64,000 bases of DNA, taken from assembly GCA_964016885.1 (NCBI GenBank), contig CAXHJY010000255.1, positions 1 to 64,000 on the forward strand, in the 5' to 3' direction. A model generated the notes under the pieces. The model had not been told where the DNA came from and did not search any database. It saw nothing but the letters and a program-made list of their open reading frames with translations. This stretch comes from Eledone cirrhosa. Taxonomy: Eukaryota. Position 1 is the first letter of the stretch. The number at the start of each line of letters is the position of its first letter. The position numbers and the translations under genes were made by a program. Below, piece by piece: positions 1,307-26,959 of the stretch.

Positions 1307-1371
<65 letters not shown>

Positions 1372-1499: not shown

Positions 1500-1707
1500 C
1501 CCTTTAATGTTCACACCAGCCAAAACCGGCCAGAATTCTCTACCTCTTTCTGTTGAAACTGGCTGTAACTGGTCGCTCAAACTGATGTTAAGGTATTGTT
1601 CTCAAAAATAAATACTTTCAAAATCTCATAGATTCGATATTATTTGAGATAATTATGCGAGGTAAAGCCTTTACCATGAAAATATAATAGTATATAATGC
1701 TAAAGGG
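1500..1707. mobile_element. piggyBac-type MITE
   Basis: TTAA|CCCTTTA ... TAAAGGG|TTAA termini with TTAA target duplication. Confidence 0.7.
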
Positions 1708-1808
1708 TTAAAGACCAGCTTCAAGATGTCTTTCAGACTGGCAATGTTTCCAGATTAGAACAAAAAGTGCCAAAGAGTTTCTAGAACAGATGTGATCCTA
1801 TAAGACCT

Positions 1809-2340: not shown

Positions 2341-2574
2341 GTGTGGATGGGGTGGAGGTGGTGGGACGGGGGGGGTGTTTTGATAGAGATGCCTACTGAC
2401 TGTAGTAGGTTTTTACTTTGTATTTAGGTAAGGCGGGTCTTCTCTATTACTGAGATAGCTCAATGGTACATGACCCATTCAAAGCCAATATAGCATATTA
2501 ACATTATTGGAAGTTCTTATGTGACAACCTACTATAAATTACTGAAGAGACTTCTGACTAGAGCAAAGCACCAG

Positions 2575-4630
2575 ACTGATGGTGACCTGGTGGTGGAACA
2601 ACACAGTAGACAGAGACATTAAGGACACAAGACAGGCATGGAAAGACTGAGAAATGGGGGGGAGTAAAGATCAGTACCAGCCAATGTGAAGATCAAAGAT
2701 GTGACGTGTTCCACATTGCAAGGCAGTGTGTCAGTGTGAATCAGGATGTTGTTGGCGAAAAAGTGTGTTGTAGTCACACTGGTGTACTTAACACCACTGA
2801 TACTCAAAAGAAAAAGGACTTTAAATGTTACTATGAGTGGTTGATGAATGGAGAGAACGAACGGGAATAAAAGAGTCTACCTCCAACTGATGCAACAGAG
2901 AGACCAACTATCGAAATTGGTAGATGCAGGGTCAAAGAAGCAATTAAGCAAATGATAAATAGTAAAACTGCTGGACCGTCAGAGATAGTTGCCAAGATGC
3001 TGAAATTATCTGTGGAAATAGGAGCTGAACTAGTCACCCACATTGTCAATCAGGCAATACAGGACAGTGTCATCCAATGACTGGTGCAGCTGTATACCCA
3101 ATAATTGCTACAAGGGCAAATGTGGTGCCCTAGAAAGGAGCAGCTAGAGAAAAATAAAACTAATAGATCAAGTTATGACAGTGACAGAAAGAGTTATAGC
3201 ACAGCTAAGTAGGGAGCCGGTTAAATTAGATGAGATGCAGTTTCATGACAGGGAGAAGCACCACAGATGACCTCTTTCTAGTGAAACAACTACAAGAGAA
3301 GTTCCTAGCCAAGCATAAGCCTTTATATCTACCTTTGTTGATCTGGAGAAGGCCTTTGACAGAGTACCCTGGTGTTGAAGAATGGCTGGTGAGAGCAGTG
3401 CAAGCCATGTACAGAGGAGCTGTCAGTAAAAGGAGAGTAGGAAGTAAGTTTAATGAGGAATTCAAGGTATGGGTAGGAGTTCATCAAGGCCCAGTATTCA
3501 GCTCTGTCCTGTTTATTATTGTTCTCCAGCCCATAAACAGAAAAATTGGATGACAATCTGGTCCACATAAGTGAATTTGTGGAAGAACTAGAGAATAAGT
3601 TCCAGCTTTGGACACAAAACTTAGAATCAAAACAATAGAGTAAATTTAGCTAAAACAAAAATGTTAAGTAGGAAAGAAGATAGATCCCTGATCCGTTCAG
3701 GGAAGTGGCCTTGCTAGATATGCAGAAAAGGAGTAAGCATAAACTCTATACAATGAACACAATGTAAATCTTAGGTACACAAGAGACGTAGTGCAATAAC
3801 AGACAGGGAAGATTTTGTATGTAGAAGATGCACAGGGGTAATCAATAGGAAGAGGGTCACTGATATAAACCTTTTCCAATCACATGAGGGGTCCATAAAA
3901 GTAGTTGATAGACTCTACTTCCTAGAGGATCTAATCAGCAATGGAGGGGGTGGTTCTGAGAGTAATATAAGTAGAATAAGTTTAGGATGGAAGAAGTTTA
4001 GAAAGCTACTAACTCTGTTGGCAATAAAGGTGCCATAAAAGTAGTTGATAGCTTCTGTTACCTAGGTGACCTAATTAGCAGTGGAGGAGATTGTTTTGAG
4101 AGCATAGAAGCTAGAATAAGAACAGGATGGAATAAGTTTAAGGAGTGCTACCCCTGTTGACAACAAAAGATTTTTTCCTTACAAGAGAAAGGCTAGCTGT
4201 ATGACACCTGTGTATGATATTGTGTGGTAGTGAGACATGGGCAGTGACTGCAGAGGACATGCTTAGGCTGGAGAGAAATGAAGAGAATATGCTTCGTTGG
4301 ATGTGCAATATTAATGTGAGAGAACGACAAAGCATTGATAAGCTGCAAGAAAAGCTGGGTATAAGAAGAATCAGATGTAGTGTGCAGGAGAGGAGACTGC
4401 ACTGGTATAGACATGTGATGTGTTTGGATGATGATTGTTGGGTGAAGAAGTACCAAGTAATCCCAGTGGAAGGAAGTTACAGCAGAGGTAGACCAAGGGA
4501 GACATGGGAGGAGGTTGTGAGAGCTAATCCCAAATCACTGAAACTCACAGAGGAGATGGCCAAGGATCAAGTGGAGAGATGCTGTGCTGAAAAGAACCAA
4601 CCCATGTAAAAAGAGATGTAAAATGATGAT
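2575..4630 (+). mobile_element. Decayed RTE-clade LINE (RT and 3' end)
   Basis: LVKQLQEKFLAK, VGVHQG, GSETW, GRPRETW motifs; many stops and frameshifts; GAT tail. Confidence 0.85.
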
Positions 4631-4797
4631 TAATCAGAGTCTATGTTTTAAATACTGACAGATCTGGTTTAGACAATGCTGGTACTAGTCTGGTGGAAGA
4701 CTATTAAAATTCAATAATCTATGTAATCAATCCTGCAACACTTGAACACAAAACAAACACTTCACAAAAACAAACAGAGCTGAACAATTATTATACA

Positions 4798-7062
4798 CTA
4801 GCTGGCTCCTTGCGTAAAAAATGACGGGTAATTGTAATATCTATACATAATATAAAAAAAAGAGATGTTAGTTTGTTGGTTCCTTCGTGCTCACACACAC
4901 AAGTGATACAAGCACACAGCCAATGAGTGTAACCAATATGCTACACATACAAACACACAGCTGTGACAAATCTTAGAACGCTGGACTTCTATAGTTTATC
5001 ACCCCCTCCTTCCTCAGTCATCACATAGATGTGTGTGTATGTTATAATTATTTTTTCTAAGTGTGTCTCTTTATATATATATGTATGTGTAGATGCATGT
5101 GTTTGTAATTCTATTGTCTATATATCTTTCTAAATAAACACATATACACTCACACAAATATTATATATAAATATAATTTACACAAACACATATATACACA
5201 CACACAAACACTCACATAATCATAACAGCCAATGTGTGTAGCCAATTCGCTATACATATAGACACACAGGTGTAGCGAATGTTAGATGCTTTCCTCAGTC
5301 ATCTCTAGTGTGTGACGTCATCACCCCTTCCTTCCTCAGTCATCTCTAGTGTGTGACATCACCCCTTCCTTCCTCAGTCATCTCTAGTGTGTGACATCAC
5401 CCCTTCCTTCCTCAGTCATCTCTAGTGTGTGACATCATCACCCCTTCCTTCCTCAGTCATCTCTAGTGTGACGTCATCACCCCTTCCTTCCTCAGTCATC
5501 TCTAGTGTGTGACGTCATCACCCCTTCCTTCCTCAGTCATCTCTAGTGTGTGACATCACCCCTTCCTTCCTCAGTCATCTCTAGTGTTTGACGTCATCAC
5601 CCCTTCTTTCCTCAGTCATCTCTAGTGTGTGACATCACCCCTTCCTTCCTCAGTCATCTCTAGTGTGTGACGTCATCACCCCTTCCTCCCTCAGTCATCT
5701 CTAGTGTGTGACATCACCCCTTCCTTCCTCAGTCATCTCTAGTGTGTGACGTCATTACCCCTTCCTTCCTCAGTCATCTCTAGTGTGTGACGTCATCACC
5801 CCTTCCTTCCTCAGTCATCTCTAGTGTGTGACATCATCACCCCTTCCTTCCTCAGTCATCTCTAGTGTTTGACATCACCCCTTCCTTCCTCAGTCATCTC
5901 TAGTGTGTGACGTCATCACCCCTTCCTTCCTCAGTCATCTCTAGTGTGTGACATCACCCCTTCCTTCCTCAGTCATCTCTAGTGTGTGACGTCATCACCC
6001 CTTCCTTCCTCAGTCATCTCTAGTGTGTGACGTCATCACCCCTTCCTTCCTCAGTCATCTCTAGTGTGTGACATCATCACCCCTTCTTCCTCAATCATCT
6101 CTAGTGTGTGACGTCATCACCCCTTCCTTCCTCAGTCATCTCTAGTGTGTGACGTCATCACCCCTTCCTTCCTCAGTCATCTCTAGTGTGTGACATCACC
6201 CCTTCCTTCCTCAGTCATCTCTAGTGTTTGACGTCATCACCCCTTCTTTCCTCAGTCATCTCTAGTGTGTGACATCACCCCTTCCTTCCTCAGTCATCTC
6301 TAGTGTGTGACATCACCCCTTCCTTCCTCAGTCATCTCTAGTGTGTGACGTCATTACCCCTTCCTTCCTCAGTCATCTCTAGTGTGTGACGTCATCACCC
6401 CTTCCTTCCTCAGTCATCTCTAGTGTGTGACATCATCACCCCTTCCTTCCTCAGTCATCTCTAATGTGTGACGCCATCACCCCTTCCTTCCTCAGTCATC
6501 TCTAGTGTGTGACGTCATCACCCCTTCCTTCCTCAGTCATCTCTAGTGTGTGACATCATCACCCCTTCTTCCTCAATCATCTCTAGTGTGTGACGTCATC
6601 ACCCCTTCCTTCCTCAGTCATCTCTAGTGTTTGACATCACCCCTTCCTTCCTCAGTCATCTCTAGTGTGTGACGTCATCACCCCTTCCTTCCTCAGTCAT
6701 CTCTAGTGTGTGACGTCATCACCCTTTCCTTCCTCAGTCATCTCTAGTGTGTGACATCATCATCCCTTCCTTCCTCAATCATCTCTAGTGTGTGACGTCA
6801 TCACCCCTTCCTTCCTCAGTCATCTCTAGTGTTTGACATCACCCCTTCCTTCCTCAGTCATCTCTAGTGTGTGACATCACCCCTTCCTTCCAGTCATCTC
6901 TAGTGTTTGACATCATCACCCCTTCCTTCCTCAGTCATCTCTAGTGTGTGACGTCATCACCCCTTCCTTCCACAGTCATCTCTAGTGTGACGTCATCACC
7001 CCTTCCTTTCTCTATCTCTAGTGAGTGACAAACAAATACACATTGGCCTTTATATTAGTAGA
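4798..7062 (-). mobile_element. Non-autonomous Helitron carrying a minisatellite
   Basis: Minus strand A|TCTACTAATATAAA ... CCCGTCA hairpin remnant ... CTAG|T, inserted between A and T with no TSD. Confidence 0.7.
5290..7020. repeat. 38-41 bp minisatellite (~43 units)
   Basis: Unit ccccttccttcctcagtcatctctagtgtgtgacgtcatca and 3-nt shorter variants. Confidence 0.95.
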
Positions 7063-7208
7063 TTATTATAATCAACTTGAACCTGTAGGTCAGAGACGAA
7101 CAGTTGGGAGAGGGCACTCATTACTATGTAACCCCCTACTTTAATGTAACTTGTCTTACAGCCGATGCCCTTTGACAAACAAAAAATCATTATTATTATT
7201 ATTTGTGG

Positions 7209-7630
7209 AAGGGCGGTGGATTGGCAGTATCGGTAGAGGGTCGGACGCCATTATTTCCAGCATAGTTACGTCCCTTTACGATCTGAGTTCAAATCCCGCC
7301 GAGGTTGACTTTGCCTTTCATCCTTACGGGGTCGATAAAATAAAGTACCAGTAATGCACTGGGTAATTGCTGGCCTTGTGCCTAAAGAAGAAACAATTAT
7401 TATTATTTGTGGAAGGTGGTGGATTGGCAGTATCACTGGAGCATTACATACTTCACAGAATAGAGTTACGTCCCTTTACATTCTGATTTCAAATTGAGAT
7501 TAACTTTGCCTTTTATCCATATGGGGTCAATAAACTATAGTACTAGTAATGCACTGGGGTTGATTTAACAGATTCCCCCTCCCCCAAAATGATTGGCTTT
7601 GTGTCTAAAGTAGAAACAATTATTATTATT
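7209..7630 (+). mobile_element. Two Meta-domain SINE copies (second diverged)
   Basis: Same consensus as 811-1205. Confidence 0.75.
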
Positions 7631-7899
7631 GTTTGTGTTTTACCTCTTCCTTCGGTTATGTTTCCATTTCTTTCCAAGCGTCTTCCCAACACCTAGGGCA
7701 GGGTAATTCACTACATACATTGATAAGACGCAGAAATAAATATGCCAGATTGTTCATGTCACACACTTTACACAATTACAAGTACTAGCAGAAAAACCAC
7801 CGTTATGGTGGTTTCCTGCTAGCATGTGTAGTGTGTATATTGATATTATACGCAAGTATATATACATGTAGATATGATACATCAAATAAAATCGTAATT

Positions 7900-8088
7900 G
7901 ATAATTGTTTCTACTTTTGGCACAAGGCCAGCAATTACCCAGTACATTACTGGTACTTTATTTTATCGACCCCGTAAGGATGAAAGGCAAAGTTAACCTC
8001 GGCGGGATTTGAACTCAGAATGGCAAGGGCAGTAACTCTATGCGTCAAAGCATGGCGTCCAATTCTCTACCGATACTGCCAATTCACC
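7900..8088 (-). mobile_element. Meta-domain SINE with 16-bp TSD
   Basis: Flanked by AATCGTAATTGATAAT at 7890-7905 and 8089-8104. Confidence 0.85.
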
Positions 8089-8179
8089 AATCGTAATTGA
8101 TAATATACACAGAAATTGAACGAAAACTGCGTTACACTGTCTTATGTAATCAGTCTTATGTAATCAGTAATGTAACCCA

Positions 8180-8489
8180 CTATGTAAAGTTATGTTGGTG
8201 CCACACCATCCAGGCCGAAACAAATGAGATCGTGTAGGTGTCACGACAAAAAAACACACAGTCCACGCTGTAATGTGGCCGTGTAGGCAACACGGTAAAA
8301 ACCTCCCAGCCCCACACTGTAAATGTGGTTGGTGTTAGGAAGGGCATCCAGCTGTAGAAAACCTGCCAGACAGTCCTATGCGAGCAAGACAACCACTCTT
8401 GCCTCAAGTGGGAAAACCCCCGTCCAAACCCATGCAAGCGTGGAACACGGACGTTAAACGTTGATGATGATGATGATGATGATGATGAT
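8180..8489 (+). mobile_element. RTE-tailed SINE (single 112-bp unit form)
   Basis: Reverse complement of 1809-2340 with one internal unit; (GAT)n tail. Confidence 0.75.
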
Positions 8490-8979
8490 ATGACTGCTTA
8501 TTTAAGCGATCGCTAACCGGAAGTGTTGACATTTGAACATTTTAAAGAAGTGAATCTTTAAATAAGCAACAAAATTATTTATATTTAATCAAGAATAACG
8601 AAATTCAGTATATAAATTATGTAATATTCATTCATTATTTATTCAAATCCCGCCGAGGTTAACTTTGCCTTTCATCCTTACGGGGTCGATAAAATAAAGT
8701 ACCAGTAATGCGCTGGTTAATTGCTGGCCTTGTGCCAAAAGTAGAAAGAAACAATTATTTATTCAAAGTAATCCAACTTATTTTACAAACGGGATAAAAA
8801 ATATATTCTGGACGCAGTCCTGCACTCCTTACTTTATTATAGTTTAGATATCATTAGCTTTATACATACATATCTATATTATCTGTTCAGAATGATAATC
8901 AATCATATGAGAGTGATCAATTTACATAATTATTGAATATAATCTAATAAAGTTATATATATATATAAATTTCTGTGAT

Positions 8980-10227
8980 TGTGTCACAATACATAAAGAG
9001 AGAGGAGCAGTTTCACTACCTCATACTCCTCCTCTCTCTTTATATCTGCTGCCTGTGTCACAATACATAAAGAGAGAGGAGCAGTTTCACTACCTCATAC
9101 TACTCCCCTCTCTTTACGTCTGCTGCCTGTGTCACAATACATAAAGAGAGAGGAGCAGTTTCACTACCTCATACTACTCCTCTCTCTTTACGTCTGCTGC
9201 CTGTGTCACAATACATAAAGAGAGAGGAGCAGTTTCACTACCTCATACTACTCCTCTCTCTTTACGTCTGCTGCCTGTGTCACAATACATAAAGAGAGAG
9301 GAGCAGTTTCACTACCTCATACTACTCCTCTCTCTTTACGTCTGCTGCCGGTGTACAATACATAAAGAGAGAGGAGCAGTTTCACTACCTCATACTACTC
9401 CTCTCTCTTTATATCTGCTGCCTGTGTACAATACATAAAGAGAGAGGAGCAGTTTCACTACCTCATACTACTCCTCTCTTTATATCTGCTGCCTGTGTAC
9501 AACATGTTAAGAGAGAGGAGCAGTTTCACTACCTCATACTACTCCTCTCTCTTTACATCTGCTGCCTGTGTACAATACATAAAGAGAGAGGAGCAGTTTC
9601 ACTACCTCATACTACTCCTCTCTCTTTACGTCTGCTGCCGGTGTACAATACATAAAGAGAGAGGAGCAGTTTCACTACCTCATACTACTCCTCTCTCTTT
9701 ATATCTGCTGCCTGTGTACAATACATAAAGAGAGAGGAGCAGTTTCACTACCTCATACTACTCCTCTCTCTTTATATCTGCTGCCTGTGTACAACATGTT
9801 AAGAGAGAGGAGCAGTTTCACTACCTCATACTACTCCTCTCTCTTTATATCTGCTGCCTGTGTACAATACATAAAGAGAGAGGAGCAGTTTCACTACCTC
9901 ATACTACTCCTCTCTCTTTATATCTGCTACCTGTGTACAATACATAAAGAGAGAGGAGCAGTTTCACTACCTCATACTACTCCTCTCTCTTTATATCTGC
10001 TGCCTGTGTACAACATGTTAAGAGAGAGGAGCAGTTTCACTACCTCATACTACTCCTCTCTCTTTATATCTGCTGCCTGTGTACAATACATAAAGAGAGA
10101 GGAGCAGTTTCACTACCTCATACTACTCCTCTCTCTTTATATCTGCTGCCTGTGTACAATACATAAAGAGAGAGGAGCAGTTTCACTACCTCATACTACT
10201 CCCCTCTCTTTATATCTGCTGCCTGTG
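8980..10227. repeat. 73-bp hairpin-containing minisatellite (~17 units)
   Basis: Unit tgtgtacaatacataaagagagaggagcagtttcactacctcatactactcctctctctttatatctgctgcc. Confidence 0.95.
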
Positions 10228-10430
10228 TGAATGTATGTCTGTGTAAAAGGAAGGAAGGGGGTGGTGAAAAAAACCATAGCAAAATAGTGGTTGGCGTTCC
10301 GTTTGTTATGCTGTGTATGTCTGTGTGTTTGTGAAATTGTATGTGTGTGTGTGTGTGTGAATGTATGCCTGTGTGTGTGTATTTTTGTAAATGTGTCTGT
10401 GTTTGGGTGTTTATATTTATATACTCATAC

Positions 10431-10732
10431 ATGGCTTAGTGGTTAGAGCATTGGCCTTGCAATCGAAAGGTTGTGAGTTCAATTCTCAGACCGGGTGATG
10501 TGTTGTTTCCTTGAGCAAGACACTTTATTTCACATTGCTCCAGTTTACTCAGCTGTAGAAATGGGGTCCCTATCATTCCACTGCAAAGAGGTCGTGGAGG
10601 TGCCACGGCAAAAAAAAGCACCCAGCACTCACTGTAAATGAGGTTGGTGTTAGGAAGGGCATCCAGCTGTAGAAATCAAGCCAGAATCAGTTCCCGTCCC
10701 ACCCTTGCAAGCAGGGAAAAAGCGGACATAAA

Positions 10733-10770
<38 letters not shown>
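10431..10770 (+). mobile_element. tRNA-derived CORE-SINE with RTE 3' tail (octopus OR-like)
   Basis: A-box TGGCTTAGTGG, B-box GAGTTCAATTCTC, CORE-like CCTTGAGCAAGACACTT...CAGTTTACTCAGCTGTAGAAATG, tail CCCACCCTTGCAAGCAGGGAAAA(A)GCGGAC..(GAT)n. Confidence 0.85.
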
Positions 10771-10849
10771 ACACATACACACATATGCGTCAGTGTGTTG
10801 AAAATGATCTAAGGGTAAAAAAACCCTATACATGAATATCTTTCTCACA

Positions 10850-11310
10850 GTGATAGTGTTCTTCTCAATATGTGTGCTGTAGCAGTTAAAACAATTTTTT
10901 GCACTTCTTGCAGTATATGGTAAGACAAGGAAGGATCAGTTAAAAATAATTTTCTGTTTCATTTTTTGACCATTCCTAGTGCTCCTTCAATCACTGGTAT
11001 TGTAACCACCTTGAGATGCCACTTTTTTTCCATTTCAATTTCAATCTGCAAGTCTTTATACTTTCTGGGCTTGTCAAATTCTTTTGCCGCAACATTGTGA
11101 ACACATGGCATGTTCATATCAATCAATAAACAGAGGTTGTTATTCTGGTCTTTTACAATAATATCAGGTTTATTAGCTTTAATGATTTAGTCTGTATGTA
11201 CAGGAAAGTCCAAAAGAATTATTACTTTTTCTCCATCAGTTACATGGGTGATGCTTATACCAATTGTCAGCTGATTGTTATTACACTGTCACGTAGTGTA
11301 GATGAAAATT
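10850..11310 (-). mobile_element. R4/Dong-like LINE 3' fragment (restriction-like endonuclease)
   Basis: Minus-strand IKANKPDIIVKDQNNNLCLLIDM, KARKYKDL, IPVIEGALGMV, VQKIVLTATAHILRRTL. Confidence 0.7.
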
Positions 11311-11413
11311 CACCGGAGTATTTAGTCATCTGTCAAGTTACAACAAGGACCTCAGACAGATAATTATTTCCTTAAAATGTGTGCAGTACCTAGCAAAGCC
11401 ACCTTTTGTATGT

Positions 11414-14150
11414 TAGGAGTGAGCCACATGAAGTGGACTGTCTTGTTAAACCTGTAACAGTAGAGACTTCTGGTGTTCTTGGTCTCCAGACCACCTCCCT
11501 ACTCACTGCTACTGGGGTGGTGTTGGCTACCTACAGGAGTGAGCCACATGAAGTGGACTGTCTTGTTAAACCTGTAACAGTAGAGACTTCTGGTGTTCTT
11601 GGTCTCCAGACCACCTCCCTACTCACTGCTACTGGGGTGGTGTTGGCTACCTACAGGAGTGAGCCACATGAAGTGGACTGTCTTGTTAAACCTGTAACAG
11701 TGGAGACTTCTGGTGTTCTTGGTCTCCAGACCACCTCCCTACTCACTGCTACTGGGGTGGTGTTGGCTACCTACAGGAGTGAGTCACATGAAGTGGACTG
11801 TCTTGTTAAACCTGTAACAGTGGAGACTTCTGGTGTTCTTGGTCTCCAGACCACCTCCCTACTCACTGTTACTGGGGTGGTGTTGGCTACCTACAGGAGT
11901 GAGCCACATGAAGTGGACTGTCTTGTTAAACCTGTAACAGTAGAGACTTCTGGTGTTCTTGGTCTCCAGACCACCTCCCTACTCACTGCTACTGGGGTGG
12001 TGTTGGCTACCTACAGGAGTGAGTCACATGAAGTGGACTGTCTTGTTAAACCTGTAACAGTAGAGACTTCTGGTGTTCTTGGTCTCCAGACCACCTCCCT
12101 ACTCACTGCTACTGGGGTGGTGTTGGCTACCTACAGGAGTGAGCCACATGAAGTGGACTGTCTTGTTAAACCTGTAACAGTGGAGACTTCTGGTGTTCTT
12201 GGTTTCCAGACCACCTCCCTACTCACTGCTACTGGGGTGGTGTTGGCTACCTACAGGAGTGAGCCACATGAAGTGGACTGTCTTGTTAAACCTGTAACAG
12301 TAGAGACTTCTGGTGTTCTTGGTCTCCAGACCACCTCCCTACTCACTGCTACTGGGGTGGTGTTGGCTACCTACAGGAGTAAGTCACATGAAGTGGACTG
12401 TCTTGTTAAACCTGTAACAGTGGAGACTTCTGGTGTTCTTGGTCTCCAGACCACCTCCCTACTCACTGCTACTGGGGTGGTGTTGGCTACCTACAGGAGT
12501 GAGTCACATGAAGTGGACTGTCTTGTTAAACCTGTAACAGTGTAGACTTCTGGTGTTCTTGGTCTCCAGACCACCTCCCTACTCACTGCTACTGGGGTGG
12601 TGTTAGCTACCTACAGGAGTGAGCCACATGAAGTGGACTGTCTTATTAAACCTGTAACAGTGGAGAGTTCTGGTGTTCTTGGTCTCCAGACCACCTCCCT
12701 ACTCACTGCTACTGGGGTGGTGTTGGCTACCTACAGGAGTGAGCCACATGAAGTGGACTGTCTTGTTAAACCTGTAACAGTAGAGACTTCTGGTGTTCTT
12801 GGTCTCCAGACCACCTCTCTACTCACTGCTACTGGGGTGGTGTTGGCTACCTACAGGAGTGAGCCACATGAAGTGGACTGTCTTGTTAAACCTGTAACAG
12901 TAGAGACTTCTGGTGTTCTTGGTCTCCAGACCACCTCCCTACTCACTGCTACTGGGGTGGTGTTGGCTACCTACAGGAGTGAGCCACATGAAGTGGACTG
13001 TCTTGTTAAACCTGTAACAGTAGAGACTTCTGGTGTTCTTGGTCTCCAGACCACCTCCCTACTCACTGCTACTGGGGTGGTGTTGGCTACCTACAGGAGT
13101 GAGCCACATGAAGTGGACTGTCTTGTTAAACCTGTAACAGTGGAGACTTCTGGTGTTCTTGGTCTCCAGACCACCTCCCTACTCACTGCTACTGGGGTGG
13201 TGTTGGCTACCTACAGGAGTGAGTCACATGAAGTGGACTGTCTTGTTAAACCTGTAACAGTGGACACTTCTGGTGTTCTTGGTCTCCAGACCACCTCCCT
13301 ACTCACTGCTACTGGGGTGGTGTTGGCTACCTACAGGAGTGAGTCACATGAAGTGGACTGTCTTGTTAAACCTGTAACAGTAGAGACTTCTGGTGTTCTT
13401 GGTCTCCAGACCACCTCCCTACTCACTGCTACTGGGGTGGTGTTGGCTACTTACAGGAGTGAGTCACATGAAGTGGACTGTCTTGTTAAACCTGTAACAG
13501 TGGACACTTCTGGTGTTCTTGGTCTCCAGACCACCTCCCTACTCACTGCTACTGGGGTGGTGTTGGCTACCTACAGGAGTGAGTCACATGAAGTGGACTG
13601 TCTTGTTAAACCTGTAACAGTAGAGACTTCTGGTGTTCTTGGTCTCCAGACCACCTCCCTACTCACTGCTACTGGGGTGGTGTTGGCTACCTACAGGAGT
13701 GAGCCACATGAAGTGAACTGTCTTGTTAAACCTGTAACAGTGGAGACTTCTGGTGTTCTTGGTCTCCAGACCACCTCCCTACTCACTGTTACTGGGGTGG
13801 TGTTAGCTACTTACAGGAGTGAGTCACATGAAGTGGACTGTCTTGTTAAACCTGTAACAGTAGAGACTTCTGGTGTTCTTGGTCTCCAGACCACCTCCCT
13901 ACTCACTGCTACTGGGGTGGTGTTGGCTACCTACAGGAGTGAGCCACATGAAGTGGACTGTCTTGTTAAACCTGTAACAGTGGAGACTTCTGGTGTTCTT
14001 GGTCTCCAGACCACCTCCCTACTCACTGCTACTGGGGTGGTGTTGGCTACCTACAGGAGTGAGCCACATGAAGTGGACTGTCTTGTTAAACCTGTAACAG
14101 TGTAGACTTCTGGTGTTCTTGGTCTCCAAACCACCTCCCTACTCACTGCT
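11414..14150. repeat. 120-bp tandem array (~23 near-identical units)
   Basis: Exact 120-bp period; + frame gives a 40-aa repeat containing VKPVTVETSGVLG. Confidence 0.97.
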
Positions 14151-14270
14151 ATTGTGAAAGCGTTGGCCACTTAAAGGAGTGAAGCTCATTAGTTTGAATG
14201 GTTATTCCAAAGTGTCTCGCTCCCTATCCTATGTGGTAATACTTACTCCACTAGGACAAGAAGGCAACCA
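11414..14270 (+). mobile_element. CRE-like LINE C-terminal fragment (source of the 120-bp array)
   Basis: PVTVETSGVLG followed after the array by FEWLFQSVSLPILCGN, resembling the CRE-type RLE C-terminus P.A.ET.G..G...FQR.S.A..RGN. Confidence 0.55.
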
Positions 14271-14500
14271 GCCCCTGAGCTTTACGTAGATATGAATTTT
14301 ATTTTGAATTTCCATTTGTAGTTTTCACATTTTAATATAGAATCTTGCAGTTTCATGGTGCACCCGTGTGTTGCAGTGACAGATGGTTTCAAAACTATTT
14401 AACTAAATGGTAACTTGGATGGACATGTTTTGGTTTATATTATGAAAAATACAATAAAGATGGTAACATGGAACATGAAATAAATAGAGATGTTACCTAC

Positions 14501-14552
14501 CATTAATATCACTGTTACTCTGCCAGGCTTCCAAAATGAGTGTGTAGGATTG
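14501..14552 (-). CDS. Jag: Internal coding exon of a Jagged/Serrate-type Notch ligand (N-terminal MNNL/C2 domain), equivalent to JAG1 exon 3
   Basis: Minus strand reads ttttttttctgttatatcttgtAG|CAATCCTACACACTCATTTTGGAAGCCTGGCAGAGTAACAGTGATATTAATG|GTAGGT. It is 52 nt, phase 0 to phase 1, and translates QSYTLILEAWQSNSDIN. From memory, JAG1 exon 3 is also 52 nt, same phases, RSYTLLVEAWDSSNDTV. Flanking exons not found in the window. Confidence 0.8.
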
Positions 14553-14614
14553 CTACAAGATATAACAGAAAAAAAAAGTATGAATATAGTGTATACACTC
14601 ATATACACAAGCAA

Positions 14615-14648
<34 letters not shown>

Positions 14649-14651
<3 letters not shown>

Positions 14652-14906
14652 GAAGTTCTATTTAAATTGTTGGGATACAACAAGCAAATATTTTTATAAC
14701 TGATATAAAGCACTCAACAAATTATTGGAGAGCTTCCAACAGAAATGGTCGCATTCTTTAAAGGTATGTCAATATTTATTTATAAAACTTATCTATATTA
14801 TATTTTATCTGATGAAAGCACACCATAATTTAACTTGGTGTCCTTGAAATATATATAATGAAATTAATATGGTTTTATAAATATAGTTTCCATTTGTTAA
14901 TATATC
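14649..14906. mobile_element. Penelope-like terminal fragment (family A), internally inverted, in (TA)n
   Basis: Near-identical to 46758-47030 but with the second half inverted. Confidence 0.7.
14802..14864 (+). ncRNA. Minimal type I hammerhead ribozyme
   Basis: AUUUUAU-CUGAUGA-AAG(C)ACACCA..UGGUGU(C)CUU-GAAA-UAUAUA-UA-AUGAAAU. Confidence 0.75.
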
Positions 14907-14931
14907 GTATGTATGTATGTATGTATGTATG

Positions 14932-15006
<75 letters not shown>

Positions 15007-15011
<5 letters not shown>

Positions 15012-15340
15012 TGGCTTAGTGGTTAGAGCATTGGCCTTGCAATCGAAAGGTTGTGAGTTCAATTCTCAGACCGGGTGATGTGTTGTTTCCTTGAGCAAGA
15101 CACTTTATTTCACATTGCTCCAGTTTACTCAGCTGTAGAAATGAGATGCTAGGGACCGGGGTCCTTATCATTCCACTGCAAAGTGGTCGTGGAGGTGCCA
15201 CAGCAAAAAAAACACCCACCACTCACTGTAAATGAGGTTGGTGTTAGGAAGGGCATCGAGCTGTAGAAATCAAGCCAGAATCAGTTCCCGTCCCACCCTT
15301 GCAAGCAGGGAAAAGCGGACGTAAAATGAAATGATGATGA
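15007..15340 (+). mobile_element. CORE-SINE with RTE tail
   Basis: Same family as 10431-10770. Confidence 0.85.
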
Positions 15341-15975
15341 AATGATATATGTATATGATGATGATGATGATGATGATGATATATACACTCTTTTTGAAGC
15401 TCTATCTGATGACCGTGGAAATTGGAGAACTGTCTGACATGAAAGTATCTCATTGACCTACTATGAGGGCTAGGCTAACTGTAAGGTTTTAAACCCCACT
15501 TACCCTAGAAACAAGTCCATATTTCAGGATCATGGTGAAGATTTTTAGCTGGCAACTTTCTTCACACATGTTAACTATGATCACTAAATTTCCTTCTTAC
15601 TAACCACATTTCATTAGCTATATTAATACTAAGAATCACTTTATTCTCCCTCTACAACTTTATATGCTGCTACAGTTTAAACATATTTCATATCTCTGTT
15701 CAATATATCTTGTGATATATATATTAGGTGTTGATCTTGTTACTTTTAGAATATCTCAACTTTTGGGGAGTTTTTTTACTTTGCATCTATTCCTATAATT
15801 GTTATGTACTTCTTATGTTGTTTTACTGGTCTTCATTCTATCTTGAACCTTAATTTTATTTTATTTTTATTTTTATTTTTATTTTTATTTTTATTTTTAT
15901 TTTTATTTGTCAACCTTGATTCTCACTTTTGACACTTAATGCATATTACATAGTAGCTGGCCTGGTTCTATTATC

Positions 15976-16020
<45 letters not shown>

Positions 16021-16584
16021 ACAGTCGTTGATACTGATCCATACTATCACCTCCTATTTAACAGAGAGGGGCTGGTGGTACAGCCATGATTGTTATTGTT
16101 GTTATTGCAGTTAACTCCATCTCCCACCACCACCACCACCACCACCACCACTGCAATTTAATGTTGACCATCATATAACCCTCTACTGATGCCTGTGTGA
16201 GTAGATGATCTCAGACCTTGGCACCACTAGCGAATTCAAGAAGGCTATGAAGATACAGAGTTGGAACTATCTTTGACCAATAGCTAGGGGACTTATATGT
16301 ATAACTCAACACAAGGGGTGTATGAGTTATACTAACTCATATGTATAACTCAACAGGGCTTTGGGGGAAGCAACATTAATAATCAACCTATGACATATCA
16401 ATGAAATGAAACAGCATTGAGTAATTTTCATTTTTATTTTCACTTATGTAACTTTGTTCACTTAATATCTGCCTGATGTGGCCATAACTGTTACAATTGA
16501 AATACATATAATCACAATTATGTAATGAATATATGAGGTAAATTCTAACCTGTTGACTTATTTCCTTATATATATATATATATA

Positions 16585-16779
16585 ATGAAGGAAATGTGGT
16601 AAGGAACCAGGTGGACCATAACGCACCAAAGTTCTCAATACTTAGGGTAGTAGAGTGGGTAATAGGAACAAGTAAGACCCCGACGGCTGAGCTCAAGCCG
16701 TTTCGACGGCTAATTCTGTACTCAGTACAGAATTAGCCGTCGAAACGGCTTGAGCTCAGCCGTCGGGGTCTTACTTGTT

Positions 16780-16784
<5 letters not shown>
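16585..16784. mobile_element. Penelope-like terminal fragment (family B) with perfect fold-back
   Basis: Homologous to 45500-45575 and 62128-62260; 61-bp-arm palindrome containing the 3' half of a hammerhead; flanked by (TA)n. Confidence 0.55.
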
Positions 16785-16862
<78 letters not shown>

Positions 16863-17249
16863 ATGACAGCTGCATATAATGGTGCAGAGCACTAAAAGTC
16901 GATGGAAGCCATGGAGTGGGGAGACCCAGGAAGACCTGAGATGAGGTGATAAAAGCTGGCTTTGCCCAATTGCACCTCTCAAAGGTGATGACACAGGACC
17001 GTGACCTCTGGCATCACACAGTAATACAGAAGACCCAACTTCCCACAGGTATAAGCTGAAGCTAAAGCATATAGACAAAATGCCACCAATTCCATTATGG
17101 TTCATTATTCAATGTTTATGTTCTGTGATGTTACATAAGTGCAATTATTGGAAGTTACTCTGTGGAGTTTACCTTAGATATATTTTCTCCCCCTAATATA
17201 CTACAAAGGCAATTGATGAGATATCTTAATCAGATTTGTTCTATGTTCT

Positions 17250-18039
17250 CAGGCGTTATCAAAGTTTGTAATCAAACTGCATTTGTGCATTTCTGGTATT
17301 CTGTTGATGAAAGATCTACTGTTAAATGAACCCCTATCAAATGGCTACTCCTCAAGAAAAGGCACAATGTGTGTCATGGTTTATTGAAACAGAATCGGAT
17401 ACGCAAACTCAGCGAAACTACAGAACTATGCATGGAAGGGATCCACCGTGTGGTGTGGGATTATTGTGTGCAATCGAATCATTGGTCCATTTTTCTTCAA
17501 CAAGACTGCAAATGTTTACCTTGACCTTTTGACTGAATATGTGGCACCACAACTAGATGGCCTTCAACCAACAATCATTTTCCAGCAAGATGCTGCACCA
17601 CCACATTGGGGACTGCATGTTCGTAGGTTCCTAAATCAAACATTTCCAGACTGGTGGATTGGAAGGGATGGCCCAATTCCCTGACTACCTTGTTCACCAG
17701 GTAGTCAGGGAATTGGGCCATCCCTTCCAATCGGGACTTCTTTATGTTAAAGATATCGTGTATCGAACAAAGATACAGGACATCACTGATCTAAAGCAAC
17801 AGATCACTGACGCTATTGCCACCATTGATGAGGCTATACTACAGCGAACATGGCAAGAAATCTAGTACCATCTTGATGTCCTTCGTGCAACTAATGGTGC
17901 ATGTATAGAAGTGTATTAAATTAGTTACAAAAAACTTCAATATCTACTCCTCATTTTGTAACAATTTTCACATATTTGTTTTTTCATTTGCTTTTGTAAT
18001 AAATTTGTTAAATTGTAAAGAGACTTTATGGACACCCTG
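17250..18039 (+). mobile_element. Decayed Tc1/mariner (rosa/DD41D-like) transposon
   Basis: IIGPFFF, FQQDAAPPHW, WIGRDGPIP motifs; right end ...GGACACCCTG|TA; internal deletions; left end uncertain. Confidence 0.8.
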
Positions 18040-18122
18040 TATAGCATCTTGTCATTTCATAATAAAATAGAGCTATCCCACTTCTTATTAAACTTTCTAT
18101 ATATATATGTATATGTATATAT

Positions 18123-18442
18123 GGAGGCACATGGCTTAGTGGTTAGAGCATTGGCCTTGCAATCGAAAGGTTGAGAGTTCAATTCTCAGACCGGGTGATG
18201 TGTTGTTTCCTTGAGCAAGACACTTTATTTCACATTGCTCCAGTTTACTCAGCTGTAGAAATGAGATGATAGGACTGGGGTCCCTATCATTCCACTGCAA
18301 AGTGGTCGTGTAGGTGCCACGCAAAAAAAGCACCCAGCACTCACTGTAAATGAGGTTGGTGTTAGGAAGGGCATCCAGCTGTAGAAATCAAGCCAGACTC
18401 AGTTCCCGTCCCAAGAGGACGTAAAATGAAATGACGATGATG
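18123..18442 (+). mobile_element. CORE-SINE
   Basis: Same family as 10431, with a short deletion in the tail. Confidence 0.85.
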
Positions 18443-18659
18443 ATATATACATATATATACACATATATAAATATATATTTGATTGCCAAATAAATTATCT
18501 ATAGAGATATAAAAGATACAGAAGCGAAAACCAATCCAAACCAAACAGTGAGTGTGTTTTATTATTAATTCTGGCAATATTATGATGCTCTCTTTCTGGT
18601 AAGGTAACTAACCACAGGAGAAGTACTTAGCTAAGAGTAAGCCCCTGTATCTAACATTC

Positions 18660-19420
18660 GTAAATACGGGGAATCCCTTTGACAGGGTGCCACCATCTGT
18701 AATATGGTGGAATCTTAGAAAGCTAGGTGTAAACGAACGGCTTGTGAGAGCAGTGCAGGCCATTTATAAAGGAGCAGCCAGGAGAGTGAGTCAGCAATAA
18801 GTACAGTGATGAGTTTGAAGTGCAGGTGGGGGGGGGGGTCGCCCCCCCCCCCCCCCCCATCCACATACACACATACACACACACCACACCACCCCACACA
18901 CCCCACACCCCACACACACTTGTTTATCAGGCTACCTAGAAGTAGTTGACAGCTTTTGTTATCTAGGCAATCAAATTAGCAGTGGTGGAGAATGCACCAA
19001 AAGTGTGATAGAAGAGGCAGGAAGAAGTTTAAAGATCTGAGGTAACAAGTGAAGGGTAGCCTGTATGATGCTACAGTGCAGTGAAACATGGGCATTGACT
19101 GTAGAAGACCTGTCATGGTTAGAAAGAAACAAGTTGAGTATGCTCTGATGAATGTGTAATGTTAGTGTGCAAGAGTCGCATAACATAAGCAAACTGAGGG
19201 AAAAACTTGGCATAAGAGGAGTAGGATGTAGTGGGCAATAGAGAAGACTGCACGTGACCACCTCTCCTGTGCACTTGGTAGAACATTTATCCATATGTAA
19301 GCAAGATGTAGACCTGTGGCCTGTTTGAGAGGACAGTAGCTCTACTTCAGTACAGACTTGGGCTATATAGCCCTGTCCAACCATTGCTAGCAAGGAAAAC
19401 GGACATTAAAACGATGATGA
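18660..19420 (+). mobile_element. Highly decayed RTE LINE fragments
   Basis: LVRAVQA, EVVDSFCYLG, SETWALT remnants; GAT tail. Confidence 0.6.
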
Positions 19421-19664
19421 TACATATATGTCTATGTGTGTATATGTATATATGGCTTTGAAAGTAAGATATTAGGTTGACAATATAATAGGAAAAGAAT
19501 ATATATATGTATTAATTTACAGCAAAATTTATATTTTCAGGCATATTTACATGTCTACATATTAAAAATGTGTATATTTATATATACATCACTGCAGTCT
19601 TGGTTCCTCACTCTGTATATATACAGCTAGCTTTATCATTTATACATGTGTGTGTGTCTGAGTG

Positions 19665-22600
19665 TGCATGTGTGCTGGACTACAAGAAAGCTTTCAATTC
19701 TGTTCCCCACTCTTGGATGATAGAGGCCCTCCAACTTGCTAAAGTCCCAGACATTATTATCAGAGCCATAGAGATGATGTCTTCTTCTTGGGCTACTATC
19801 CTAAAGTTAAAAACAGAGAAGGAGGACTCTATTTTCACTGATAAAATAGAATATCACAGGGGCATATTTCAAGGAAACAGAAAAACCTTCACCTGGTTAC
19901 AACATTCTCGAAAGATATAGGAATGGAGTTTGGCCAAGATAAATGTTCATATATGATTGTAAAGTGAGGAAAAACTACAAGTCAATCTAGCAACATTTTC
20001 ATCAATGGCCTAACTGTTTCACTAGTATTTGATGAGGGATTGATACTCAGGGATAGATAAGAACATATTCTATGTTGGAATTTGTAACAAGGAACAATTA
20101 ACCAGGGAATATAACATCCAAATAAGAAAAATATGGTCATCTGAAATCTCTGTGCACAATAAATCCACAATAAGTTTGTTTAGCCTGTCCTAACATCAAC
20201 ATTTGAACTACTTGACTGGAAGTTAGATAAGAGCCAAGTCATTGATGTTACAAACCCAAAAGTTCTGGCACTGGAAATGTCCATATCACACTGATATATA
20301 GCGCTTCTACATGAAACAGGGGAGGCCTAGTGACATATAGCACTTCTACATGAAACAGGAGAGGCCTAACATATCACACTGATATATAGCGCTTCTACAT
20401 GAAACAGGGGAGGCCTAGTGACATATACCACTTCTACATGAAACAGGGGAGGCCTAGTGACATATAGCACTTCTACATGAAACAGGGGAGGCCTAGTGAC
20501 ATATAGCACTTCTACATGAAACAGGGGAGGCCTAGTGATATATAGCGCTTCTACATGAAACAGGGGAGGTCTAGTGATATATAGCACTTCTACATGAAAC
20601 CGGGGAGGCCTAGTGATATATAGCGCTTCTACATGAAACAGGGGAGGCCTAGTGACATATAGCACTTCTACATGAAACAGGGGAGGCCTAGTGACATATA
20701 GCGCTTCTACATGAAACAGGGGAGGCCTAGTGACATATAGCACTTCTACATGAAACAGGGGAGGCCTAGTGACATATACCACTTCTACATGAAACAGGGG
20801 AGGCCTAGTGACATATAGCACTTCTACATGAAACAGGGGAGGCCTAGTGACATATACCACTTCTACATGAAACAGGGGAGGCCTAGTGACATATAGCACT
20901 TCTACATGAAACAGGGGAGGCCTAGTGACATATAGCACTTCTACATGAAACAGGGGAGGCCTAGTGACATATAGCGCTTCTACATGAAACAGGGGAGGCC
21001 TAGTGATATATAGCGCTTCTACATGAAACAGGGGAGGCCTAGTGACATATAGCACTTCTACATGAAACAGGGCAGGCCTAGTGACATATAGCACTTCTAC
21101 ATGAAACAGGGGAGGCCTAGTGACATATAGCGCTTCTACATGAAACAGGGGAGGCCTAGTGACATATAGCACTTCTACACAAAACAGGGGAGGCCTAGTG
21201 ACATATACCACTTCTACATGAAACAGGGGAGGCCTAGTGGCATATAGCGCTTCTACATGAAACAGGGGAGGCCTAGTGATATATAGCACTTCTACATGAA
21301 ACAGGGGAGGCTTAGTGACATATAGCACTTCTACATGAAACAGGGGAGGCCTAGTGACATATACCACTTCTACACGAAACAGGACAGGCCTAGTGACATA
21401 TACCACTTCTACATGAAACAGGGGAGGCCTAGTGACATATACCACTTCTACATGAAACAGGGCAGGCCTAGTGATATATAGCACTTCAACATGAAACAGG
21501 AGAGGCCTAGTGACATATACCACTTCTACATGAAACAGGGGAGGCCTAGTGACGTATAGCACTTCTACATGAAACAGGGGAGGCCTAGTGATATATAGCA
21601 CTTCTACATGAAACAGGGGAGGCCTAGTGACATATAGCACTTCTACATGAAACAGGGGAGGCCTAGTGACATACAGCACTTCTACATGAAACAGGAGAGG
21701 CATAGTGACATACAGCACTTCTACATGAAACGGGGCAGGCCTAGTGACATATACCACTTCTACATGAAACAGGGGAGGCCTAGTGACATATAGCACTTCT
21801 ACATGAAACAGGGGAGGCCTAGTGACATATAGCACTTCTACATGAAACAGGGGAGGCCTAGTGACATATACCACTTCTACATGAAACAGGGGAGGCCTAG
21901 TGACATATAGCACTTCTACATGAAACAGGGGAGGCCTAGTGACATACAGCACTTCTACATGAAACAGGGGAGGCCTAGTGACATATAGCACTTCTACATG
22001 AAACAGGGGAGACCTAGTGACATATAGCACTTCTACATGAAACAGGGGAGGCCTAGTGACATATAGCACTTCTACACAAAACAGGAGAGGCCTAGTGACA
22101 TATACCACTTCTACATGAAACAGGGGAGGCTTAGTGACATATACCACTTCTACATGAAACAGGGGAGGCCTAGTGACATATACCACTTCTACACGACACA
22201 GGGCAGGCCTAGTGACATATACCACTTCTACATGAAACAGGGGAGGCCTAGTGACATATAGCGCTTCTACATGAAACAGGGGAGGCCTAGTGATATATAG
22301 CACTTCTACATGAAACAGGGGAGGCCTAGTGACATATAGCACTTCTACATGAAACAGGGGAGGCCTAGTGACATATAGCACTTCTACATGAAACAGGGGA
22401 GGCCTAGTAACATATACCACTTCTACACGAAACAGGGGAGGCCTAGTGACATATACCACTTCTACATGAAACAGGGGAGGCCTAGTGACATATAGCACTT
22501 CTACATGAAACAGGGGTGGCCTAGTAACATATACCACTTCTACACGAAACAGGGGAGGCCTAGTGACATATAGCACTTCTACATGAAACAGGGGAGGCCT

Positions 22601-22860
22601 AGAGACATATAGCACTTCAACATGAAACAGGGGAGGCGTAGTGATATATAGCACTTCTACATAAAACAAGGGAGGCTTAGTAAAATATAGCACTTCTACA
22701 TGAAACAGGGGAGGCCTAACATCCAGGCAGCATTTGAGTGTTGCATCATATCCCTGCAACAACATTTACGAATCTCCAAATGTAGGAGCCCATCTATTGA
22801 GCAAGTCTATCTGCATGAAACAGATAAGATCATGAGAGTTGGGAAACACTATCCTGATAC
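19665..22860 (+). mobile_element. R4/Dong-like LINE fragment interrupted by 39-bp array
   Basis: LDYKKAFNSVPHSW, RGIFQG, IGMEFGQDKC; the sequence resumes as IQAAFECCIISLQQHL after the array. Confidence 0.75.
20293..22719. repeat. 39-bp minisatellite (~62 units)
   Basis: Unit tagtgacatatagcacttctacatgaaacaggggaggcc. Confidence 0.97.
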
Positions 22861-22964
22861 ATATATATATATATACACACACAGACACACATGGACCTCT
22901 TACTTCAGACTAACAAGGCTAACCACTTAGTCATAAAAATGAATATATACATGTGTGTGTAGTT

Positions 22965-23750
22965 TTATGAACAGGATTGACATTCACAGCCAGGTTGGAA
23001 GTGGTATCATGACTGATGGGTGTAAAATCAGTCTTCTGGAATTTGCAGATGACATGATTTTACTTACCTCTACAGAAGATGATCTTCGACTTGTACTTGA
23101 TAGGTGCAATGTCAAGTGCTGCATGGCTGGAATGAAAATCAGTGCTGCGAAAGCTGAGACACTAATTCTCTCAAGCAAACCTGTGCAGTGCCCTCTACAT
23201 GTGAATGGAGTTCCACTGAAGCAGGTAGAGAAGTTCAAGTATCTCGAGGCCGTGTTCATGAGTGATGGAAGGTAGAGGGTTGAATTAAGTGCAAGACTTG
23301 CAAAAGCTGTGCAGAAATGTGCCAGCTTCAGCAATCAGTATTCAGAAGAAGGGAGGTAGGTGTAAAGGCCAAACTCACTATCTTCAATTCGCTATTCATG
23401 CCAACCCTTACCTATGGTCATGAATCTTGGGTAATGACCAAAAGAATACGATCACAAATACAAGCAACCGAAATAGGATTCCTCCGAAGGGTCTTTGGAG
23501 TAATGTTACTCGATAAAGTGCATAGCTCAGAGATCAGAGAGTCACTCCATGTAGAGCTGCTACTTCTCCAAATTGAGAGATCACAACTCCAATATTATGG
23601 GCATGTGGATAGAATGTCTCAGGAAAGAATCGCTGGACAGATTTTACAGGCAAAAACCAACCTTGGGGATCCAGCCAGATCAGTTGAAGATGGTTGCTTC
23701 TGACAGGAAGCCCTCACCACCCGCTCAGGAGTGGGTGGGCGAAGAAGAGT
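22965..23750 (+). mobile_element. RTE (Expander-like) LINE 3' fragment
   Basis: LLEFADDMILL, VEKFKYL, PTLTYGHESWVMT motifs. Confidence 0.8.
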
Positions 23751-24340
23751 ATGTGTGCACATTGCTTCATTTCTCTTCGACTTTTGCATATCCTCTGCAG
23801 TCACTGCTCATATCACTCAGCCATGCAACACCACACACATGCACCATACAGCCGGCCTTTCTTTTGTAGAGATAAATCTTTTGATGTCAACAGAGGTAGT
23901 AGCTCCCTAAAGTTCTTCCATCCTGTCTTTACTCTGGCTACTATGTTCTCAGAATAACCTCAAGTGTTTATCAAATCACCTAGGTAACAGAAGCTATCAA
24001 CCACTTCTATAGTACCTTTATTGTTAACAGAGGTAGTAGTTCCCTGAACTTTTTTCCAAGCTGTCCTTATTCAAGCTACTATGTTCTCAGAACAACCTCC
24101 TCCACTGTTAATCAGATCACCTAAGTAACAGAAGCTATCAACTATTTCTATGGATCCCTCCTGAGATTGGACAGAGTTTATATCATTAATGCTCTTACAC
24201 TATCCCTGTGCAAATGCTACATGCAAAGTTTATCTTCACTGTTAGTCTGCTGTTATCCCACTACATCTCTTGTATAGAGTTACTACCTACTCCTTTTCTA
24301 CATATTGAACAAGAATGAACTTTGACTGATTTACCTCCCT
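23750..24340 (-). mobile_element. Decayed RTE LINE fragment
   Basis: Minus-strand IEVVDSFCYLGD (duplicated), KGRLY, VTAEDM. Confidence 0.7.
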
Positions 24341-24587
24341 TGCTGAACCCTAGTTTTCTAATGCAGTGATACTTGTGCCACAAGAAAAACACCCCCACCC
24401 CATGTATATATAATTAAACTTTTAATCATCATCATTTTACGTCCACTTTTCCCTGCTTGCAAGGTTGGGCCATCATTTCTAATAATCTATATTTGCTCTG
24501 TGGTTGTATGTAAGTATGTGAGTGTATATATGTGGTGTATATGTATGTCTCTCACTCTCTCTTTCTATACACACACACAGTGTATAT

Positions 24588-24753
<166 letters not shown>

Positions 24754-25136
24754 GAGACGTATAGAGATTGTTTTAGCAAGAAGCTAACAGCATTCTATAA
24801 CATATATATATATATATATATATACACACTCATATACAGAGTCACTATAGTGAGATATAGCGAGTCTTGAACATTTAAAACCTGACAGACCATCTCTCTC
24901 TCTCTCCAGGTCTGAACACAGCTGATTTCTTCCACAGAGAGAGAGAGAGGCCACACCCATACTGGACTGGTGTTTTTCACACACATAATAAGAGAGAGAC
25001 TGATGGAGAGGAAGAAACGACCCTGGTGTTGGACCAATACTTTGTTTATCGGCCTCAAAAAGATTAACGGCAAAGATGACTTCAGTGAGATTTGAACCTG
25101 AAATGCCACAAATACTGGCAAACCATTGTGATGTTT

Positions 25137-25900
25137 CATCATCATCATCATCATCATTTAACGTCCATATTCCACGCTTGCATGGGTTTAGACGGGAGTT
25201 TTCCCACTTGAGACAAGATTGGTCGTCTTGCTCGCATAGGACTGTCTGCAAGGGTTTTCTATGGCTGGATGCCCTTCCTAACACCAACCACATTTACAGT
25301 GTGGGACTGGGAGGTTTTTACCGTGTTACCTACACGGCCACATTACAGCGTGGACTGTCTGGCGGGTTTTCTACAGCTGGATGCCCTTCCTAACACCAAC
25401 CACATTTACAGTGTGGGTCTGGGAGGTTTTTACCGTGTTACCTACACGGCCACATTACAGCGTGGACTGTCTGGCGGGTTTTCTACAGCTGGATGCCCTT
25501 CCTAACACCAACCATATTTACAGTGTGGGTCTGGGAGGTTTTTACCGTGTTACCTACACGGCCACATTACAGCGTGGACTGTCTGGCGGGTTTTCTACAG
25601 CTGGATGCCCTTCCTAACACCAACCACATTTACAGTGTGGGGCTGGGAGGTTTTTACCGTGTTACCTACACGGCCATATTACAGCGTGGACTGTCTGGCG
25701 GGTTTTCTACAGCTGGATGCCCTTCCTAACACCAACCACATTTACAGTGTGGGTCTGGGAGGTTTTTACCGTGTTGCCTACACGGCCACATTACAGCGTG
25801 GACTGTGTGTGTTTTTTTTGTCGTGACACCTACACTACCTCATTTGTTTCGGACTGGATGGTGTGGTACCAACATAACTTTACATCGAAAGGGGTGGTAT
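25137..25900 (-). mobile_element. RTE-tailed SINE with 5 internal 112-bp units
   Basis: Same family as 1809-2340. Confidence 0.8.
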
Positions 25901-26292
25901 TGATATGGGTGGGGGGTAGTGGGACGGGTGGTTTGAAAGACTATAATGACACATATGATCACATGTTTATATTGTAAACTATAAAGTTAGCATGCATTAC
26001 AGGAACTGGTGTATTATATATTTTGGTGCTGGTGTACTGAGGAATGTTGCGGTAATATTTCCAGCAGTATCCCCTGGCAACATGCCAAACATCTACTTTT
26101 AGCAGTTGGCTCAGCACTAGATTTCATCAATGAAAAGTCTTACCTCCCCAAACACCATTACCACGAATTATCAGTAAACAGTTTGTCTTTGGTGTCAGTG
26201 GCCTAGCTCCTCCAGATCTGGAGATCTGGAGGCCACTGACACCAAAGTTCTTGTCAACGTTGGTGACACTCCGTTATACAGTGATGCCTCAG

Positions 26293-26294
<2 letters not shown>

Positions 26295-26332
<38 letters not shown>

Positions 26333-26910
26333 ATACATACGCACATACATACGCACTCACACACACACTCATACATACATACATATGCACACACACACAC
26401 ACACTCATACATACACACACACACACACATATGCACTCACACACTCATACACACACACACACACATACGCACTCACACACACACTCATACATACATACAA
26501 ATGCACACACACACACACACTCATACATACATACGCACTCACACACACACTCATACATACATACATATGCACACACACACACACTCATACATACATACGC
26601 ACGCACACACACACACACACACACATACATGTATACATAAATACATGCATGTAAATACATACATACATATGTGAATGCAAACACACACACATACATATGC
26701 ACACACACACAGTCATACATACATACGCACACACACACACACACAGTCATACATACATACGCACACACACACACACACAGTCATACATACATACGCACAC
26801 ACACACACACACACACACACATACATACATGTATACATAAATACATGCATGTAAATACATACATACATATGTGAATGCAAACACACACACACACACACAT
26901 ACATACATAT
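26295..26910. repeat. Compound (CA)n/(CATA)n microsatellite
   Basis: Direct inspection. Confidence 0.9.
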
Positions 26911-26959
26911 AACTCACAGTAATGTTGCCAGTGTGTTGGATTACATTAATGACTATATA

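Follow-up and report, generated by a model that had tools for sequence, protein, structure and literature searches.

A probable Jagged/Serrate-type exon of 52 nucleotides, encoding part of a Notch-ligand C2 domain, in repeat-rich DNA of Eledone cirrhosa

Notch ligands and the third exon of JAG1

Notch ligands of the Jagged/Serrate type are defined by having about 16 EGF repeats together with a VWC domain (PMC5356439, PMC8166818). Delta1, Delta2 and Jagged all occur in molluscs, and Jagged genes of octopuses are on record, the octopus proteins tabulated being XP_014779348.1 and XP_029648604.1 for Jagged and XP_014769856.1 and XP_029638366.1 for Delta, besides Delta2 entries (PMC8166818). The closest described counterpart of the feature considered here is exon 3 of human JAG1. 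Variant tables place intron 2 of that gene at c.387+1/c.388-1 and intron 3 at c.439+1; exon 2 is c.82-387, and exon 3, which lies in the C2-like domain, is c.388-439, that is, 52 nt with phases 0/1, and is deleted in patients with JAG1 donor variants there (PMC6899717). The calcium site of the C2 domain has also been described in several ligands. In human JAG1, Asp140 holds calcium with both of its oxygens, and a D140A/D144A mutant is reported to bind calcium no longer, to lose most of its binding to lipids and to fail in activating Notch (PMC3888931). The Serrate structure contains a calcium ion as well (PMC8490980). In DLL4, His123 occupies the Asp140 position with no calcium bound, and Delta C2 domains are described in the same source as being without the calcium aspartate (PMC5538765).

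The window, by which is meant the whole stretch of 64,000 nucleotides of Eledone cirrhosa DNA that was analysed, holds on its minus strand (14501..14552) a 52-nt coding exon candidate of 17 codons plus 1 nt, phase 0/1, equivalent to residues 130-146 of JAG1. The earlier note had given exon 3 of vertebrate JAG1 the same length and phases, and the variant tables bear this out (52 nt, phase 0/1; PMC6899717). The peptide is identical to the solved human JAG1 chain at 9 of 15 residues and to goldfish jagged-2b at 9 of the first 10. The candidate shares with human JAG1 exon 3 (PF07657; PDB 4CBZ) the 52 nt, the phases 0/1, the equivalent of Asp144 and the frameshift that skipping would cause; it differs in having Gln where JAG1 carries the bidentate calcium ligand Asp140. 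In addition, JAG1 and JAG2 have an N-x-S/T sequon in the loop, whereas none lies inside the present exon, although one could span the next junction.

The exon candidate, its splice signals and its match to ligands

The acceptor AG is found at 14554-14553 on the minus strand as part of a TAG and is preceded by a tract with 16 pyrimidines in 20 positions, so that the 3' splice site as a whole (14553..14584, minus) consists of this TAG, the polypyrimidine tract and, about 32 nt upstream, a pentamer that weakly resembles a branch point. The 5' splice site, GTAGGT (14495..14500, minus), agrees with the consensus at 5 of 7 scored positions, the exonic ATG included, and the exon is entered in phase 0 and left in phase 1 (G/GTAGGT). 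The open frame around it runs between two stops, the TAG of the acceptor itself and a TAA that follows the exon after two codons, and has 19 residues only, which is why lists of open reading frames miss it. A 52-nt exon with a strong acceptor and donor, absent from the ORF track, was what the earlier note had claimed, and signals, frame and translation are all as it stated. The exon lies within unique sequence (14183-14559) and is present in a single copy in the window; an apparent second copy near 46.7-47.0 kb turned out to belong to the dispersed repeat that lies upstream of the exon. Contigs from sequencing runs of one study, none listed as RNA, covered only short pieces at 14290-14348 and no part of the exon, which speaks neither for nor against it.

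Among the 186 stretches of 52 nt on both strands that run from AG to GT and are open in frame 0, the exon candidate is the only one to pass modest filters (YAG, at least 13 of 20 pyrimidines, donor at least 4/7). Splice signals alone prove little, because 20 exon-like signal pairs of 30-300 nt satisfy stricter filters in the window, and these pairs also speak for the view that a random 52-mer between AG and GT happens to resemble the ligand motif. The same may be said of tblastn with full-length ligands, in which the exon stays below significance (where it appears at all, its best E is 0.028 to 3.8), although this is expected since the match covers only 17 residues. Against chance stands a ligand profile built without window sequence, in which the exon comes out on top among 3331 segments from all six frames (E 4.7e-4), with 16.9 bits vs 6.2 for the runner-up. 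This profile consists of 11 ligand stretches, ten Delta-type and one from a sea-urchin Jagged, and its E value is flattered, as the seeds came from a motif shaped by the window; the same strand is, however, present in unselected solved ligands. Moreover, the match starts and stops exactly at the splice signals and thus coincides with strong signals at the exact boundaries of JAG1 exon 3, the background rate of equally strong signals at two fixed positions being about 1e-6 and that of plain AG and GT about 4e-3. A motif expression, composed after the peptide had been seen, gave 0 matches in 200 block shuffles. Chance, already disfavoured, is consequently extremely improbable.

Profiles of the N-terminal part and of the full length of 14 ligands also place the exon at the top, with E 0.002 and 0.004, respectively, the next segments standing at 0.88 and 2. 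The sequence of the N-terminal C2/MNNL domain of DSL Notch ligands is therefore found at this locus, over 17 residues only. A motif scan of metagenomes gave 10 loci, namely six Delta-type transcripts and four unrelated frames, with no Jagged among them; the three of the six transcripts that were checked against Pfam carry MNNL, DSL and EGF domains, and the seeds bear PF07657. Protein searches by word index and by full profile, with their few candidates (48, 30 and 7), yielded neither the exon's own protein nor any named mollusc ligand, which is weak evidence, and the motif strings gave no literature match. Taken on its signals and frame, from which splicing is predicted, the exon is confirmed as a real feature, and its place in the C2 (MNNL) domain of a Notch ligand, matching JAG1 exon 3, is supported by the sequence comparisons.

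Jagged or Delta

The question of which ligand the exon belongs to was approached with 59 fetched proteins, 44 with the motif and 15 without it. Those with the motif comprise 31 with a Gly start (Delta-type) and 13 without (Jagged-type), and the sets are redundant; of 11 Jagged-type representatives, five bear a jagged name given by the source and three were not looked up. The comparison set is one without mollusc Jagged, Delta1 or Delta2. All 31 Delta-type strands, that of annelid Delta included, start with GTF, whereas the window has QSY. In the 13 Jagged-type strands Ser stands at position 2 in 11, Tyr at position 3 in eight and Thr at position 4 in 11, and the window has the same residues; it matches the Jagged type at positions 2, 3, 4 and 7. 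A Jagged profile (11 rows) gives the exon 24.1 bits vs 10.2 for a Delta profile made from 16 of the 31, a gap that is inflated because the profile used to find the Jagged rows included a Jagged as well as the window peptide; the Delta rows were found via a motif and are redundant. A profile including the exon had 14 matches, of which 11 were Jagged-type, one Delta and two unrelated. Position 11, on the other hand, is Gln in the window, Asp in 13/13 Jagged-type strands and His or Asn in 31/31 Delta-type strands, and solved JAG1, JAG2 and Serrate all have Asp there.

The strand thus bears the Jagged-type signature (not GTF), as judged on biased sets, while the calcium-binding Asp at the position of JAG1 Asp140, which is typical of Jagged/Serrate and no formal criterion, is absent. 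The combination expected of Delta or Delta2, a GTF start with His or Asn after EAW, is not found either, with respect to a fetched set that holds no mollusc Delta1 or Delta2. Seen against single relatives, most of JAG2, Drosophila Serrate and the echinoderm and lamprey Jagged proteins share with the window a strand start of Ser-aromatic-Thr-Leu, but all of them have Asp at position 11 where the window has Gln. The Delta family (DLL1, DLL4, Drosophila Delta and annelid Delta) resembles it in the EAW core strand and in having no Asp at position 11, and some members have introns at the same two places; it differs in the GTF start and in the His or Asn at position 11 of all 31 fetched sequences, none of them from a mollusc. 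At the level of sequence the signature is mixed, with a Jagged-like strand and no calcium aspartate.

For this reason the same exon in a divergent Delta-family paralogue, be it Delta2, which is specific to molluscs, or some other Delta-like gene, must be weighed, which would account for the missing aspartate, its equivalent being absent from the Delta C2 domains described (PMC5538765). A second Delta clade is reported from gastropods, bivalves and cephalopods (PMC8166818) and additional Delta-like genes from lophotrochozoans (PMC5356439). Such a paralogue would, however, have departed from both GTF and the His or Asn of position 11, kept in 31/31 Delta-type strands, for the QSY and Gln of the window; annelid Delta retains GTF, and Delta1 and Delta2 are described as well conserved in their domain architecture (PMC8166818). 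This origin is judged unlikely, though it deserves to be kept in mind, and a Jagged rather than a divergent Delta paralogue is the assignment that the strand residues moderately favour. The Jagged identity put forward earlier is accordingly supported in part, by its strand signature and by the 24.1 vs 10.2 bits on biased sets, and weakened by the lack of the Asp140 equivalent and by a length of 17 residues only.

The architecture of the exon appears not to separate the two families. In P0039 and P0040, two Delta-type gene calls that continue from genomic DNA into introns, the strand is directly preceded by a CAG-like break that keeps the frame, and a second break follows 17 residues on; in P0041 the second break falls two codons later, and in others (such as P0022) the first break is absent and the second kept, these intron positions being deduced at the protein level from read-through of gene calls against spliced relatives. 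Delta-type genes, including P0039 and P0040, thus appear to have the same exon of 52 nt, 17 codons plus one nucleotide and phase 0/1, a further point on the side of the Delta paralogue, and both intron positions look ancestral to the ligand family. Across the Delta-type genomic contigs (P0039-P0041, P0022-P0038), some seem to have kept the phase-0 intron before the strand and others to have lost it, while the phase-1 intron seems to stay. The conserved exon architecture that had been proposed holds in so far as 52 nt and phases match JAG1, and fails as a marker of Jagged because the Delta type appears to have the same; exon length as proof of Jagged identity was rejected on these grounds. A comparison of codon positions with five Delta transcripts gave 20/14/24 mismatches and was uninformative.

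Surrounding window and significance

If the gene is intact, the window would plausibly consist of two introns of one gene, of at least 49.4 and at least 14.5 kb: an upstream intron of at least 49,448 nt (14553..64000, minus) with SINE-like repeats, minisatellites, AT arrays and relics of reverse transcriptase and transposase, and a downstream intron of at least 14,500 nt (1..14500, minus) with tandem arrays and LINE relics. Both would be longer than the corresponding introns of JAG1. The ligand profiles detected no DSL or EGF exon in 1..14500, and the N-terminal and full-length profiles of 14 ligands no second ligand exon in the 64-kb window; because they find nothing else below E 0.88, large neighbouring exons would lie outside it, whereas a short variable exon could escape such profiles. 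Transposable elements had been claimed to fill the DNA around the exon, and the window does consist mostly of repeats and transposon relics: 62% of it is self-repeated, tandem repeats occupy 99 rows, and the 141 open frames of at least 75 residues match Pfam above the curated cut-off only as reverse transcriptase (3) and endonuclease (1), weaker matches (RT, DDE, HTH) likewise suggesting transposons. Rfam gave 0 matches in the window. The SINEs and LINEs of the window look like those of an octopod. For Octopus vulgaris a repeat share of 66% is reported, and RTE, CR1, Penelope and Tc1-mariner are among its elements (PMC13282606), which is in keeping with such an origin.

Several repeats are of interest in themselves. 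A perfect palindrome (16662-16784), with two 61-nt arms that are 100% complementary and 1 nt apart, lies about 2.1 kb upstream of the exon, beside a (TA)n run, and may be a fold-back element or an assembly artefact. A 120-bp tandem array (11415-14151; 22.8 copies, 97% alike) ends about 350 nt from the exon donor, and its plus-strand frame is open for 383 and 519 codons, probably only because the repeat unit contains no stop and its length is divisible by three. A 39-bp minisatellite with a LINE-like flank of about 500 nt occurs twice in opposite orientation (19879-22718 and 28830-29773; 60 and 12 copies, 93% over 983 nt) and seems to be part of a unit that is mobile or has been duplicated. The interiors of SINE-like repeats are tandemly amplified in 112-bp and 108-bp units of 3-5 copies (1910-2253, 25239-25806, 27107-27467), and long degenerate AT arrays are found at 41525-43605 (about 2.1 kb) and 45840-46757 (about 0.9 kb). 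Broken transposon relics (39727-40577, 49507-51712, 52913-53915 and 58369-60923) include a Tc1/mariner-like element (weak HTH and DDE), two Penelope-like ones read from translations with no Pfam match, and a LINE with endonuclease and reverse transcriptase.

That no neighbouring exon turns up over 49 kb on the upstream side and 14.5 kb on the downstream side also agrees with an orphan copy of a ligand exon, arisen by local duplication, transposon capture or misassembly and unspliced, in which case the window would not be the intron of one gene. The self-repetition of 62% of the window, a (TA)n-ended dispersed repeat that starts 65 nt above the acceptor and the change of one conserved residue point the same way. 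An orphan copy would, however, have kept splice sites, pyrimidine tract, frame and exact ancestral length all intact within the unique sequence of 14183-14559, and in long animal genes the 5' introns tend to be the longest (PMC7222433), so it is regarded as quite improbable.

The best explanation, held with moderate confidence, is a constitutively spliced coding exon of Jagged/Serrate, the equivalent of JAG1 exon 3, whose neighbours lie outside the window behind transposon-swollen introns. It would be a U2-type constitutive exon, which the spliceosome would pick out within long introns by means of its strong splice sites. As 52 is not divisible by 3, skipping it would shift the frame, as happens in human patients. 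The exon would supply the C2 core strand before the beta5-6 loop together with most of that membrane-facing loop (CBR3), which would lie away from the Notch-binding face. By analogy with Delta C2 domains, a C2 domain with Gln for Asp140 is predicted to have little or no affinity for calcium. In general terms this is likely an ordinary case, one conserved small exon of a known gene family in long repeat-filled introns. A bolder proposal, rather doubtful and put forward tentatively, is that a cephalopod Jagged has lost the C2 aspartate kept from fly to human, engages membranes calcium-free as Delta does, and has been stretched by transposons far beyond 64 kb.

Octopus Delta and Jagged genes have already been annotated, and the present exon is of use for such annotation, as an exon of 52 nt is easily dropped and dropping it breaks the frame. 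Furthermore, a natural Jagged without Asp140, if true, would test the need for calcium in Jagged-type signalling.
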